Below are positions 40,647 through 45,204 of a stretch of 64,000 nucleotides of DNA, one piece after another; within the stretch, counting starts at the first letter, position 1; each line of letters opens with the position of its first letter. The notes beneath the pieces were generated by a model. It searched no databases. It was given only the letters and a program-made list of their open reading frames with translations, and was not told where the DNA came from. This DNA comes from Escherichia coli. GTDB lineage: Bacteria > Pseudomonadota > Gammaproteobacteria > Enterobacterales > Enterobacteriaceae. The translations under genes were made by a program, and so were the position numbers. The stretch lies in the NCBI RefSeq assembly GCF_044324875.1, contig NZ_CP172185.1; one strand, 5' to 3'.

Positions 40647-41675
40647 TTATTTCACCTGTACCACCACAAACTCATCCGGGTCCGGCAACACCATCAGCGG
40701 CGCGGACTGCGTCATGGTAAATTCACGGGCGGGATCCCCCACCGTCAGCCAGTGTTTCGGATAACGGGAAGAGGCCACCACGCCTTCAGACAACGCCTGT
40801 GCATCCTGAATGGCACCGTAACAACGGATCCCATCTGCAGCAGTATTCCCCAGGACCAGCGTGCCGTCTGGCAGATAACGTTTTTCGGTACCGTCCTCTG
40901 CCACATAAGACGTTTTCGCCACCACAATGGCCAGATCACCGTAATACCCTTTGAAAGACACCACCGCCCCCAGGTCTTTCACTGCCGTTTCGAGTTGCGA
41001 ATTTGAACCGCGACGGGTATCCAGTTTTTCGCGGAACAGCTTAAAACCATTCAGCAGACGCCAGACGGTACCGTCCATAATGGCAATATTCACAAGGCCG
41101 CTGGCCTGGTCGCAGTAGAGGTCAATATCATGCGCAGGATCGAACGTGTCACGATCGTGCTCAGACCATTTTTTACCACTGGCCTGCGTAATGTTATTCG
41201 CCGGCGATCTGCCAAAATCGACCTCAATTTTCTCGAACTGGTCTCCTTCCATGGTGTATTTGCCATACAGCACGGCATTTACCGCCTGCATTTCTTCCAC
41301 CTGGACAATCGCGTACTCTTCCTGTTTGAGGTTATCGGTAATGATACGCAGACGGCGGTAAGCCGGATCGTTCAGTTGAGCCGGATCTTCACCAGGAAGG
41401 CGCTCAACCGCCTGCCGGGAATTAAATTCGTGTTTCGGCTTGACGTAGCCCGGACGCAAGACGCGGGTTTCACCACCACGATGACGCAGCACTTTTCCTT
41501 CAACAACCGGGGAGACATAGGCCGCCACCGGCGTTTTTCCGGTAATTTTGTCCAGCATCACCTCTTCGGTATGGAAATTCACCGTACGACGGAAAAACAG
41601 CTCCAGAAACAGCGCACGAAATTTCACTTTTTGTTCGGTATAACCGAGTAACTGGCGGGTCGTAAACAATCCCAT
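40647..41675 (-). CDS. Major capsid protein (lambda gpE-like)
   Basis: 342 aa; conserved blocks such as GSNSQLETAVKDLG and TGDPAREFTM match lambda E. Confidence 0.92.
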   Translation of the reverse strand: MGLFTTRQLLGYTEQKVKFRALFLELFFRRTVNFHTEEVMLDKITGKTPVAAYVSPVVEGKVLRHRGGETRVLRPGYVKPKHEFNSRQAVERLPGEDPAQLNDPAYRRLRIITDNLKQEEYAIVQVEEMQAVNAVLYGKYTMEGDQFEKIEVDFGRSPANNITQASGKKWSEHDRDTFDPAHDIDLYCDQASGLVNIAIMDGTVWRLLNGFKLFREKLDTRRGSNSQLETAVKDLGAVVSFKGYYGDLAIVVAKTSYVAEDGTEKRYLPDGTLVLGNTAADGIRCYGAIQDAQALSEGVVASSRYPKHWLTVGDPAREFTMTQSAPLMVLPDPDEFVVVQVK

Positions 41676-41732: not shown

Positions 41733-42080
41733 TTACGGCAGCGCCGCGTGACTCAGGGCACTCCCGGCAAAGGCGTTGGCCTTTTTGTGTTCATCCACAC
41801 TGTCAGGCCAGCGGATTGCCTCCGTCGCAAAAGTCCCCGACTTGTAATACGTCAGCACCGTCTCTGTGCCTTCAAGCGGCAGTACCAGTATGCCAACCGC
41901 ACCTCCGGCTTTCTGTCCGTCCCAGACCACCAGTTTCCCGGTGGCTTCATCCAGCATCAGGGGCGTCAGTGCCGGTGTTGCCGAGGAAATCCCGCTGCTG
42001 CCTGTGGCGGTGTGAGCCGGATCATTACCGGCAAAAATACGTACTTCCGCACGCTGTTCAGTGATGGTTTTCGTTACCAT
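41733..42080 (-). CDS. Capsid decoration protein (lambda gpD-like)
   Basis: 115 aa; DPAHTAT...TPLMLD...YKSGTF motifs. Confidence 0.9.
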   Translation of the reverse strand: MVTKTITEQRAEVRIFAGNDPAHTATGSSGISSATPALTPLMLDEATGKLVVWDGQKAGGAVGILVLPLEGTETVLTYYKSGTFATEAIRWPDSVDEHKKANAFAGSALSHAALP

Positions 42081-42116: not shown

Positions 42117-43622
42117 TCATGGCATGGCCATGAGCATTTTCACGTCCGCATCACCGTCTGCTGACGTCTGTGGCACGCCACCCTGTACCGCTGCCGGTGA
42201 ATGGTTCGCCATGAAATGTTCAAACATGGCGGTTGTGGATGCAGAGACCGGTTCTGCCTTACCTGATCCCGCAGCCAGCACAGCCCGGGCGTTCTCCACG
42301 GTCATTCCCGGGCAGGCAGCCAGCTGTTCAGCCTGCGCCTCAGCCCCTTTTGCCTCATCCAGGGCCATGATCTGATCACGGAGTGATGGTCCGGCATCCG
42401 CCTGCGGTGAAGCTGCCAGGATCGGGCGGGCTTTTTCCACCGTCATCTCCGGCATCGCCGCCAGCGTTGCCGCCAGTTGTTCACGACCTTTCGCCTCTTC
42501 ACACGCCATAATGCGATCGGCTTCACTCTGCGCGGATGCCACCGGCTGCTGTGGTGCCGCCGCGGCCAGGATCTCCCGGGCCTGTTCAACGCTCATGCCC
42601 TGTTGTCCCGCCAGCATCGTGGCAAGCTGTTCACGTCCTTTCGCTTCCTTACTCGTCAGGATCCCCATCACTCGCTGGTTCTCCTGCGCGGCGGCTTCCG
42701 TTGCAGTTAATTGCGGCATAGTGCCTCCTGTATCATGTGTGTACAGCGCCGTGGTCATCACACTGATGGCATCCGACGCATTGACTAATTCATCCGCCAG
42801 CCCGGCCTCAATGCCGGACTGACCTTCAAAAACGGCGGCCTCTGTTCCCGTGACCACATCCACAGACAGCCCGGTATACATCGCCACTTTTTCGGCAAAC
42901 ATCCGGTGTGCCGCATCAATGCGCTGCTGCATGTCCTGACGCACCTCTTCCGGTAAGGCTTCAAACTGATTGCCATCCACCTTGTGCGCCCCGGCATAAA
43001 TCAGCGTGATATCCACACCGGCCTGCGCCAGATGACCGGCATAGCTGAGATGGCTCATCATCACGCCAATGGAGCCGATACGGGATGTCTGGGTAACCAG
43101 CCGTCGGGAGCAGGCCGACGCCAGCAGCATGGCTGCAGAACAGGCCGTGTCATTGCACACTGCCCAGACCGGCTTCTGCTGACGGAGGCGGTAAATCATG
43201 TCAGCGCAGTCAAACGCGCCTGCGGCCTGCCCGCCCGGACTGTCAATGTCCAGCAGTACGCCCCGGACAGCGGTGTCCGCCATTGCCTGCTGAAGACAGG
43301 CGACAATGCCGTCATAGCCTGTCATTCCGGAAAATGGCCGCATACCACCCAGCCGGTGCACCAGCATGCCGGTCACCGGCAGTACAGCAATACCGTTCAC
43401 CACCCGGTAAACACGGGCCGGTCGTTTACCTCCGGCCATGTACTCGTCCGTTTCAGCCAGCATTCCGGGAGCATCAAGCTGTACCTGCTGTTGTGGTACC
43501 GAAAGACTTGCTGCCCCCATCTCGCGCCCGAGCGCGCAAAAGAAAACCCGCGCATAGGCGGGCTCCAGAAGCAGCGGTTCATTGAATGCTGCGGCAATAA
43601 TGTGTGAAAGATTACGTCTCAC
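42117..43622 (-). CDS. Head maturation protease/scaffold (lambda gpC with nested Nu3-like region)
   Basis: 501 aa; S49-type protease N-terminus and Ala/Glu-rich C-terminal part with three EAKGxE repeats. Confidence 0.85.
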   Translation of the reverse strand: MRRNLSHIIAAAFNEPLLLEPAYARVFFCALGREMGAASLSVPQQQVQLDAPGMLAETDEYMAGGKRPARVYRVVNGIAVLPVTGMLVHRLGGMRPFSGMTGYDGIVACLQQAMADTAVRGVLLDIDSPGGQAAGAFDCADMIYRLRQQKPVWAVCNDTACSAAMLLASACSRRLVTQTSRIGSIGVMMSHLSYAGHLAQAGVDITLIYAGAHKVDGNQFEALPEEVRQDMQQRIDAAHRMFAEKVAMYTGLSVDVVTGTEAAVFEGQSGIEAGLADELVNASDAISVMTTALYTHDTGGTMPQLTATEAAAQENQRVMGILTSKEAKGREQLATMLAGQQGMSVEQAREILAAAAPQQPVASAQSEADRIMACEEAKGREQLAATLAAMPEMTVEKARPILAASPQADAGPSLRDQIMALDEAKGAEAQAEQLAACPGMTVENARAVLAAGSGKAEPVSASTTAMFEHFMANHSPAAVQGGVPQTSADGDADVKMLMAMP

Positions 43623-45204
43623 GTGGTGTTGTCTCCTCTTCCGGCCTGCGACTCGCCGCTATCTGCTGCTGATACGCCTGCGCTATCCACACCGGACGTG
43701 AGAGTCCGGCTTTTTCCCGCTCTGCAGATTCCCTGACCTGCTGGCGGAAAATGTCCTGATAATCCTCACCCATCAGCGCCAGCTCTTTCTCATACGTGCT
43801 CAGTCCGGCCTCAATGCGCATCACCGATTCCTGGACCTCCTTGAGCCCGTCAATGGCCATTCTTCCGGCTCCAATCCACTCTGCCCGTGACCAGGATGAA
43901 CGCGCCTGATAAAAATCAAAACGCGCCCGTGGCGGACGAATAATCCCCCGCAGAAGAGCCTCTTCCAGCCAGCAGGAAAACATCTGCGTGGCCAGCCGGG
44001 CCGCAATAAATTTTCGCCGCCCCATAAAATAGCGCCACGACTCATTGGCGGAGGCGCGGGCACTTGAATAACTGACCTTCGAGTAATCACGGGACAACTG
44101 TTCGTAGGAAACGCCAAGACCGGCGGCGATATACCGCAGCAGCGCCTGTTCAAGCGCAGAAAATCCATTGTCTGAATCCTGCGCAGTCTGTAGTTTCAGA
44201 TCATCACCGGGGAAAAGGTGCGGAATTTTGACACCGCCCAGTGTCACGTTATTCGTGTCATACCAGCTGGAGAACTTCTCCAGAATATTAATAAGCGGAT
44301 TATCCTTCTGCCCCTCCGGCGCACCGGCGATATATTCAAAGGCCTTTTCGGTATCAAGTTCACTTTCAATCGTCGCTGCATACATCGCCTTCACTATGGC
44401 TGACTGAAGCTGTGTTGCCTGCAGGGAATCGAGCATTTTCAGCCGTTCCATGACGCTGTAAAACTGATTAGCCCCACGGGTCTGCCCGTCCTCAACCGGC
44501 TCGAAAATATGCAGCATGGCCGGACGCCCGGTGGGAAGTTCACGCGGGATCCGTTCCCATCGTCCACTACCAGAGAGCGGAAAATCATCCTCACAGATAT
44601 GGTACGCAACGGCCCGTCCATGCCGATCGACCTCCACCCCGGCCCGCAGAAAGCGGTTCCCCAAACCGTATCCTGGCGTGTCCACCCGTTTCGGACTCAC
44701 GGCTTTAAAACGCGTACGAAACAGCTGCGTAGTCTCCGCATCCCAGACCGGCTGCACAAAGATTTCGCCGTTAAACGCATGAACGCCCACGCCTTCCCGG
44801 ATAAATTCCGTGAACGTGCGTTTTCCTTCCACGTCGATCTCGCCAGACATCCCTTCGGCGTATTCCGACCAGGCCGCCTCCACCTCATCGACAAAGCTTT
44901 TTGCTGCGGTCTCCCGCATCCCCAGCCAGCGCCAGTTCGGACGGTAGCTGATCAGAAACATATGCCCGACTATGTGATCCTTATGCAGGGCCACCGCATT
45001 AGCCGCTATTCCGTTATTGCGCACCAGATCATCTGCCCGGGCATTCCCCAGACGCAACGCGGGCAGCAGGGCCGCATCGACACTCTGCGCCGGTGGCAAC
45101 CACTCCGCCATTTGCCCGCCAAATCCTGCGCCGCCCCCGTTGTAGCTGAGACTCTCACGAAGCGGAACGCCGTTCACATCAATCAGGACAGGCGTTCTTT
45201 TCAT
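43612..45204 (-). CDS. Portal protein (lambda gpB-like)
   Basis: 530 aa in lambda B position between W and C. Confidence 0.9.
   Translation of the reverse strand: MKRTPVLIDVNGVPLRESLSYNGGGAGFGGQMAEWLPPAQSVDAALLPALRLGNARADDLVRNNGIAANAVALHKDHIVGHMFLISYRPNWRWLGMRETAAKSFVDEVEAAWSEYAEGMSGEIDVEGKRTFTEFIREGVGVHAFNGEIFVQPVWDAETTQLFRTRFKAVSPKRVDTPGYGLGNRFLRAGVEVDRHGRAVAYHICEDDFPLSGSGRWERIPRELPTGRPAMLHIFEPVEDGQTRGANQFYSVMERLKMLDSLQATQLQSAIVKAMYAATIESELDTEKAFEYIAGAPEGQKDNPLINILEKFSSWYDTNNVTLGGVKIPHLFPGDDLKLQTAQDSDNGFSALEQALLRYIAAGLGVSYEQLSRDYSKVSYSSARASANESWRYFMGRRKFIAARLATQMFSCWLEEALLRGIIRPPRARFDFYQARSSWSRAEWIGAGRMAIDGLKEVQESVMRIEAGLSTYEKELALMGEDYQDIFRQQVRESAEREKAGLSRPVWIAQAYQQQIAASRRPEEETTPRET

Follow-up and report, generated by a model that had tools for sequence, protein, structure and literature searches.

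Three tandem copies of a 41-45-residue unit occupy the scaffold part of an Escherichia coli prophage gene which, by its sequence, is a phage-21-type homologue of lambda C/Nu3 within a lambdoid prophage. The gene lies at 42,117-43,622 on the minus strand of the window, i.e., the whole 64,000-nucleotide stretch of contig NZ_CP172185.1 that was analysed. The three-copy feature is real and was read correctly in the initial annotation of this DNA, but it is already annotated in phage 21 and is very common in E. coli. The main import is therefore that the window carries a phage-21-type head module; what is added to earlier knowledge is a definition of the unit across the family, a prediction of its fold and a natural series of one to five copies.

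Identity and Genomic Context of the Gene

The 501-aa reading frame (GTG start, TGA stop) corresponds to gene 5 of phage 21 and to lambda C, a prohead protease of the S49 family whose C-terminal region is a scaffold; its location on the minus strand had been missed. It overlaps the 3' end of the portal gene (43,612-45,204) by 11 nt and is followed by the decoration gene (41,733-42,080) and the major capsid gene (40,647-41,675), all on the minus strand. This order (portal, protease/scaffold, decoration, major capsid) agrees with that of an annotated, 96-99.7% similar prophage, and the gene occupies the lambda C/Nu3-type position in the head operon. PHROG 53 (“head maturation protease”) is matched by the entire protein (E 3e-223), and the scaffold PHROGs 8399 and 8940 each match it three times. 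Together with a Pfam S49 domain, 52.7% identity to lambda C over 412 aligned columns and the shared synteny, these matches bear out the initial reading of the frame as a C/Nu3 homologue.

Megablast aligned all 1506 nt of the gene with gene 5/6 of phage 21 (M81255.1, OL657228.1) at 96.5% nucleotide identity, and ~19 isolated phage-21-like phages were matched as well. Of 5426 complete E. coli genomes, 2031 contain the gene, at up to seven copies per genome. The copy in NZ_CP033635.1 is 100% identical; equivalence of the whole window with that record was considered and rejected, as the gene alone is identical at 100% and the prophage around it is a mosaic at 96-99.7%.

Elsewhere in the prophage, a tail-fibre reading frame (21,284-22,780, minus strand) contains collagen-like tandem repeats of 45 nt (15 aa), with 13.3 copies at 76% match in 22,006-22,588 and 3.4 copies at 83% match in 21,561-21,715. 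An IS66-family element (~22,849-25,520; annotated as tnpA/tnpB/tnpC in a related genome) has pieces of the tail-fibre gene of the prophage on either side, and the side tail fibre gene is therefore probably disrupted.

Protease Domain and Nested Scaffold Frame

The Peptidase_S49 domain (Pfam PF01343, E 5.2e-36) spans aa 146-291 (42,750-43,187, minus strand). Residue mapping aligns Ser162 and Lys214 with Ser166 and Lys218 of lambda C, so that an S49 domain with both positions kept, as expected of the PHROG 53 type, is present. The aligned residues are taken to be catalytic, as in SppA and gpC, and the full-length product is, on the strength of this homology, an S49 (SppA-like, Ser-Lys) prohead protease.

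A Shine-Dalgarno sequence, AGGAGG (42,724-42,729, minus strand), stands 4 nt upstream of an internal ATG encoding Met302. The in-frame nested reading frame that begins there (42,117-42,719, minus strand; 200 aa; phage 21 gp6/Nu3-like) is annotated as a CDS at the homologous position in M81255.1 and OL657228.1. The phage 21 records mark the same AGGAGG as the putative RBS for gene 6, and M81255 gave the nested scaffold gene 6, with its putative RBS and its start at the Met302 position, as early as 1993. The last 200 residues are very probably also made separately from this site as the scaffolding protein (phage 21 gp6).

In lambda, AGGAGGG and an ATG are found at Met309, which is homologous to Met302, whereas lambda records annotate nu3 from residue 239 of C, a Met that is absent in the 501-aa protein. 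No obvious Shine-Dalgarno sequence precedes residue 239, and the one at residue 309 is strong. Since the nu3 annotation (residue 239) and the phage 21 gp6 start (homologous to lambda residue 309) differ, “scaffold protein” annotations are not equivalent between records. RefSeq/PGAP labels the gene only “S49 family peptidase” and includes no nested scaffold CDS; as the phage 21 records do have one, the scaffold is systematically absent from E. coli genome annotations. The practical point is that automatic annotation omits the nested scaffold protein.

Three Tandem Units in the Scaffold Part

On the minus strand, unit 1 (Tri1) covers aa 314-358 (ENQRVMGILTSKEAKGREQLATMLAGQQGMSVEQAREILAAAAPQ; 42,549-42,683), unit 2 (Tri2) aa 367-407 (EADRIMACEEAKGREQLAATLAAMPEMTVEKARPILAASPQ; 42,402-42,524) and unit 3 (Tri3) aa 414-453 (LRDQIMALDEAKGAEAQAEQLAACPGMTVENARAVLAAG; 42,264-42,383). 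Three helices are predicted in each of units 1 and 2, and unit 3 is additionally delimited by alignment to lambda. A family profile that draws on 74 single-copy homologues and leaves out the window sequence scores the three at 70.8, 61.1 and 46.7 bits (E 3e-24, 4e-21 and 1e-16), i.e., unit 1 is the most canonical and unit 3 the most degenerate. The conserved C-terminal unit of the family, ER.RI...EA.GRE..A..LA....M.V..A...LAAAP, has three matches in the 501-aa protein. Unit 3 adjoins the conserved tail and stands at the place of the single unit of lambda. This tail (aa 454-501; 42,120-42,263, minus strand), defined by alignment to lambda, ARM81ld and 569R10, comprises a helix spanning aa 461-474 (TTAMFEHFMANHS, corresponding to TALDRLM in lambda) followed by a hydrophobic end, KMLMAMP.

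The three EAKGxE-containing repeats reported in the initial annotation are recovered as EAKGRE in unit 1 (aa 326-331; 42,630-42,647), EAKGRE in unit 2 (aa 376-381; 42,480-42,497) and EAKGAE in unit 3 (aa 423-428; 42,339-42,356). Its two near-identical 14-aa copies are likewise found as KEAKGREQLATMLA (aa 325-338) and EEAKGREQLAATLA (aa 375-388), which are identical at 11 of 14 positions and contain an identical run of 9 aa. Self-alignment of the protein, which had been proposed as a check, confirms the repeats: local BLOSUM62 alignments of the unit pairs score 95, 80 and 102 vs. ~26 ± 5 for shuffled sequences (z = 14.1, 10.9 and 14.8, a range of 11-15), and 0 of 1000 shuffles reached the observed score. 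The near-invariant Arg of the GRE motif is kept in units 1 and 2 and lost in unit 3 (EAKGAE), which, with the degeneracy of that unit, hints at redundancy among the copies.

At the DNA level, Tandem Repeats Finder detected no repeat in the scaffold region because the copies are too diverged, while a search with 7-nt seeds recovered three 97-nt cores of 65-70% identity at spacings of 141 and 150 nt. Since the DNA-level repeat is this faint, the repeat is a protein-level one.

The M81255 record contains three repeat_regions named “Tri1 box”, “Tri box” and “Tri3 box”, each described as “function unknown; putative”, a label that has apparently never been followed up. In phage 21 gp5, these boxes cover aa 324-358, 371-407 and 418-455 and fall on the window units at 314-358, 367-407 and 414-453; the repeats noticed from the sequence are thus a rediscovery of an annotated feature. 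The initial annotation had missed both the identity with phage 21 gene 5/6 and its Tri boxes.

The Unit as a Family-Wide Module and its Predicted Fold

A profile of six units, searched against 1.84 billion representative proteins, retrieved 1131 proteins or clusters at E<=1e-3 and 107 at E<=1e-10. Among the best 150 of the 1131 matches, the unit is almost always single, lies ~40-70 aa from the C-terminus and belongs to proteins of ~410-600 aa or to fragments; it is also single in lambda, N15, phi80, HK225, 434 and others. Peptidase_S49 was detected in 10 of 10 long unit-bearing proteins tested, and four genomic contexts, distant ones included, display a portal_2/S49/(decoration)/Phage_cap_E head module. 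Unit-bearing proteins of ~115-200 aa were considered as free-standing scaffold genes, a candidate that was dropped when all three of those examined proved to be truncated genes at contig ends. Separately, a lambda-type C gene is fused with tape-measure or tail-L sequence in P0147 (844 aa) and P0146 (582 aa), as is a phage-21-type gene with tail-fibre-like sequence in P0084 and P0086; these four chimeras are probably deletion fusions in decayed prophages.

In an alignment of 75 sequences, the nearly invariant positions are all inside the unit (consensus AER.RI.GIL.C.EAKGRE.LA..LA..PGMTV..AK..LAAAP), while the tail is poorly conserved. Neither Pfam nor NCBIfam holds a model that covers the unit, and searches of PDB sequences returned no credible match, whether the query was the scaffold or the 75-sequence profile. 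A solved structure or significant fold match for the unit was not found in these searches, nor was a sequence or fold likeness to the C-terminal helix-turn-helix domain of P22 gp8.

AlphaFold2 (AF2) modelling of unit 3 with the tail, using the 75-sequence alignment, placed helices at aa 414-419, 428-435 and 442-452 with unit pLDDT of 90-95; the tail helix (aa 461-474) reached ~80 and the end ~60-65. For the 200-aa scaffold, with an alignment of 7 sequences only, the three-helix pattern was predicted three times at pLDDT 75-85 (unit 1 ~82-85, unit 2 ~77-81), with linkers at 45-65 and a pTM of 0.28. Confident units, low-scoring linkers and a low pTM together suggest beads on flexible linkers instead of one packed domain. 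Each copy is accordingly predicted to form its own small three-helix bundle, with flexible Pro/Gln/Ala linkers in between. The unit is conserved and selected, and going by the models it probably folds independently.

Age of the Triplication and Copy-Number Variation

Between the copies, pS is 0.62-0.65 (near saturation) vs. a pN of 0.21-0.32, giving a dN/dS of ~0.16-0.32. Three other three-unit lineages (P0121, P0122 and P0123), 46-60% identical overall, have copies that match those of the window position for position: their unit 1 shares 83%, 76% and 62% identity with unit 1 of the window protein, vs. 59-69% between the latter and units 2 and 3 of the same protein. Furthermore, a 3-aa insertion, “GIL”, occurs only in unit 1, both in the window and in all three relatives. 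Synonymous saturation, low dN/dS, pairing of copies by position and the unit-1-specific GIL indicate that the triplication is old and has been retained.

Across E. coli lambdoid prophages, the copy number takes values of 1 (lambda), 2, ~2.5, 3 and 4-5, the last in a lineage from STEC/ETEC. Among the reduced forms, a 451-aa variant carries a hybrid of units 1 and 2, formed within the shared EAKGREQ segment, together with unit 3; a 452-aa variant, joined at an 8-nt homology, retains units 1 and 3; and in the 472- and 482-aa variants unit 2 is partly deleted. A census of complete genomes with junction-specific probes of 46-48 nt placed the 482-aa form in at least 56, the 451-aa form in at least 18 and the 452-aa form in at least 1, with 2031 genomes having the gene; the deletion variants are minor beside the three-unit form. 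The one 452-aa context that was inspected is a degraded prophage. A wider occurrence of the 482-aa deletion, in 488 partially matching genomes, was rejected, as most of these represent an allelic “AAPLADAG” ending of unit 2. Both the deletion variants and the 4-5-unit forms were seen in prophages only, and the 4-5-unit form was not found among the isolated phages in the collection.

The STEC/ETEC sister lineage (~104 genomes) shares the head module and has the unit in tandem at the corresponding place, but its 46-aa units are near-identical (units 2-5 are 81-95% identical to each other in nucleotides), and the array is therefore either young or homogenised. Most of these genomes have four units (538 aa, WP_096095873.1), and nine have five (584 aa, WP_250696612.1), for example STEC005; NZ_CP041437.1 (locus 1095-2849) belongs to this lineage. 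Short-read contigs of this lineage all begin inside the array, i.e., the assembly breaks at the repeat. As near-identical arrays break short-read assemblies, copy numbers taken from draft genomes are unreliable.

A 551-aa “4-copy” variant (P0002; LS992828.1, 1501-3156) has N bases at both junction copies and an inexact translation; it may be an assembly artefact and was not counted. The 657-aa variant P0001, which carries a 156-aa duplication including the end of the protease domain, may also be an assembly artefact.

Proposed Role of the Units and Alternative Explanations

Taken as a whole, the observations are best explained by a protease-scaffold of the lambda C/Nu3 kind in which the Tri units serve as protein-contact modules, probably for the capsid protein, and we consider this explanation likely. 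The unit would be the protein-protein contact element of the scaffold, probably directed at the lambda-E-type major capsid protein, and the units, being C-terminal modules of full-length gp5 as well, would bring both scaffold and protease into the growing shell. The tripled unit would provide a longer, multivalent scaffold instead of the disordered linker of lambda, and once the shell has closed the scaffold would be digested by the protease. The role as a contact module is suggested by the unit being the one element common to all scaffolds of the family, by the known contacts of Nu3 and by the ability of Nu3 to drive E polymerisation: according to Medina and co-workers in 2011, purified lambda Nu3 reportedly causes E on its own to polymerise into shells resembling procapsids. 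Contacts of lambda Nu3 are reported with E, C and B and with a second Nu3, the Nu3-E contact being a two-hybrid result in which the unit was not mapped (PMC3224144). That the unit binds the capsid protein specifically is a tentative proposal, somewhat short of probable.

The partner of the units could also be the scaffold itself or the portal. According to the former possibility, which we judge unlikely, the units would be self-association modules that build the scaffold core, and the capsid would be bound by the C-terminal tail through its helix (aa 461-474) and hydrophobic end. In P22 and 80alpha it is the extreme C-terminus of the scaffold that contacts the coat, and the tail helix is conserved among closer lambda-like relatives, both of which speak for such an arrangement, as does the Nu3-Nu3 interaction reported from yeast two-hybrid analysis and a personal communication (PMC3224144). 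Against it stand the poor conservation of the tail in the 75-sequence alignment, where conservation is concentrated in the unit, and the AF2 model (pTM 0.28), in which the three units are not packed together. Binding to the portal (the lambda B homologue), with the units acting in nucleation and extra copies raising the chance of portal incorporation, is considered improbable, even though Nu3 is needed for B incorporation and B, C and Nu3 constitute the initiator complex (literature table in PMC3224144). Phage_portal_2 does always adjoin the gene; however, the unit co-occurs equally with portal, S49 domain and capsid protein, and genomic context therefore cannot pick the partner. A prohead contains ~200 scaffold copies vs. 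one portal, and the reported polymerisation of E alone by Nu3 implies that a contact with E is needed; both points weigh against the portal.

Two further explanations would deny a role to the extra copies or to the protein repeat altogether. If only a single copy matters, the others may be tolerated filler, a neutral “protein minisatellite” generated by unequal recombination. The range of 1 to 5 copies among E. coli prophages, the deletion junctions at short homologies and the loss of the near-invariant Arg in unit 3 are in keeping with this view. Nevertheless, we accord it little likelihood: the lineage is dominated by three copies (of the 2031 genomes with the gene, at least 56, 18 and 1 have the three variant junctions that were searched), synonymous sites between copies are saturated at a dN/dS of ~0.16-0.32, the copies are kept position by position in relatives of 46-60% identity, and in 19 of 19 isolated phages with a match over >=80% of the gene the scaffold region is retained at full length, the alignment running to query position 1506. 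A DNA or RNA signal (regulatory or for recombination) residing in the Tri boxes, with the protein repeat as a by-product, is scarcely credible. M81255 does annotate the boxes as DNA repeat_regions and OL657228 marks two pattern-match CII sites nearby, but the copies are only 60-70% identical in nucleotides, most synonymous sites differ between them although the amino-acid pattern is preserved, no DNA repeat is detected by TRF, and the unit is conserved as protein in >1000 clusters.

The reading of the units as contact modules can be extended to a broader proposal, speculative and on present evidence rather unlikely, in which the Tri unit would represent an unrecognised mini-domain family by which all lambda-type S49 scaffolds bind the capsid (or form their core) and whose copy number of 1 to 5 tunes scaffold valency and length. 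If so, E. coli would offer a natural allelic series for testing scaffold valency against the nucleation and fidelity of procapsids. Likewise, if multivalency holds, the natural 1-5-copy series would be a handy system for relating the number of capsid-binding modules to procapsid assembly.

Comparison With Known Systems

Phage 21 is the closest counterpart. Its gp5 has the same length as the window protein and differs from it at 25 of 501 residues, the differences being allelic substitutions only; for example, unit 2 has EEAKGRE in the window protein and EEANGRE in phage 21, and unit 1 has TSKEAKG and TCQEAKG, respectively. The internal RBS and ATG are the same, and so are the neighbouring genes, namely portal, shp (decoration) and gene 7 (capsid).

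With SppA (PDB 3RST, 4KWB, 3BEZ), the gene shares a homologous S49 catalytic domain (E 1e-15 for 3RST and 4KWB), whereas SppA itself is a membrane-associated housekeeping protease devoid of scaffold units. P22 gp8 provides an analogy: this scaffold, too, ends in a small helical domain, the coat-binding C-terminal helix-turn-helix, which serves as a model for how coat subunits could be recruited.

Lambda gpC/gpNu3 likewise combines an S49 protease with a nested scaffold frame, and the gene order is the same. Lambda has one unit (ENSRIMGILNCEEAHGREEQARVLAETPGMTVKTARRILAAAPQ), after which the homologous tail follows, vs. three in the window protein. The initial annotation held that the protein is about 60 aa longer than lambda C because of the repeats. 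The length is as stated (501 vs. 439 aa, +62) and the net gain does come from two extra units; however, these replace the linker of lambda and are not simply added to it. Relative to lambda C, the two extra units with their linkers add ~100 aa, the linker at the N-terminus of Nu3 is reduced from 47 to 12 aa (-35), the protease part and unit 3 are shorter by 8 and 4 aa, respectively, and the tail has 9 aa more. Where lambda has a 47-aa linker rich in Thr, Ala and Gln, the phage-21-type protein of the window has units 1 and 2 with their linkers (~100 aa).
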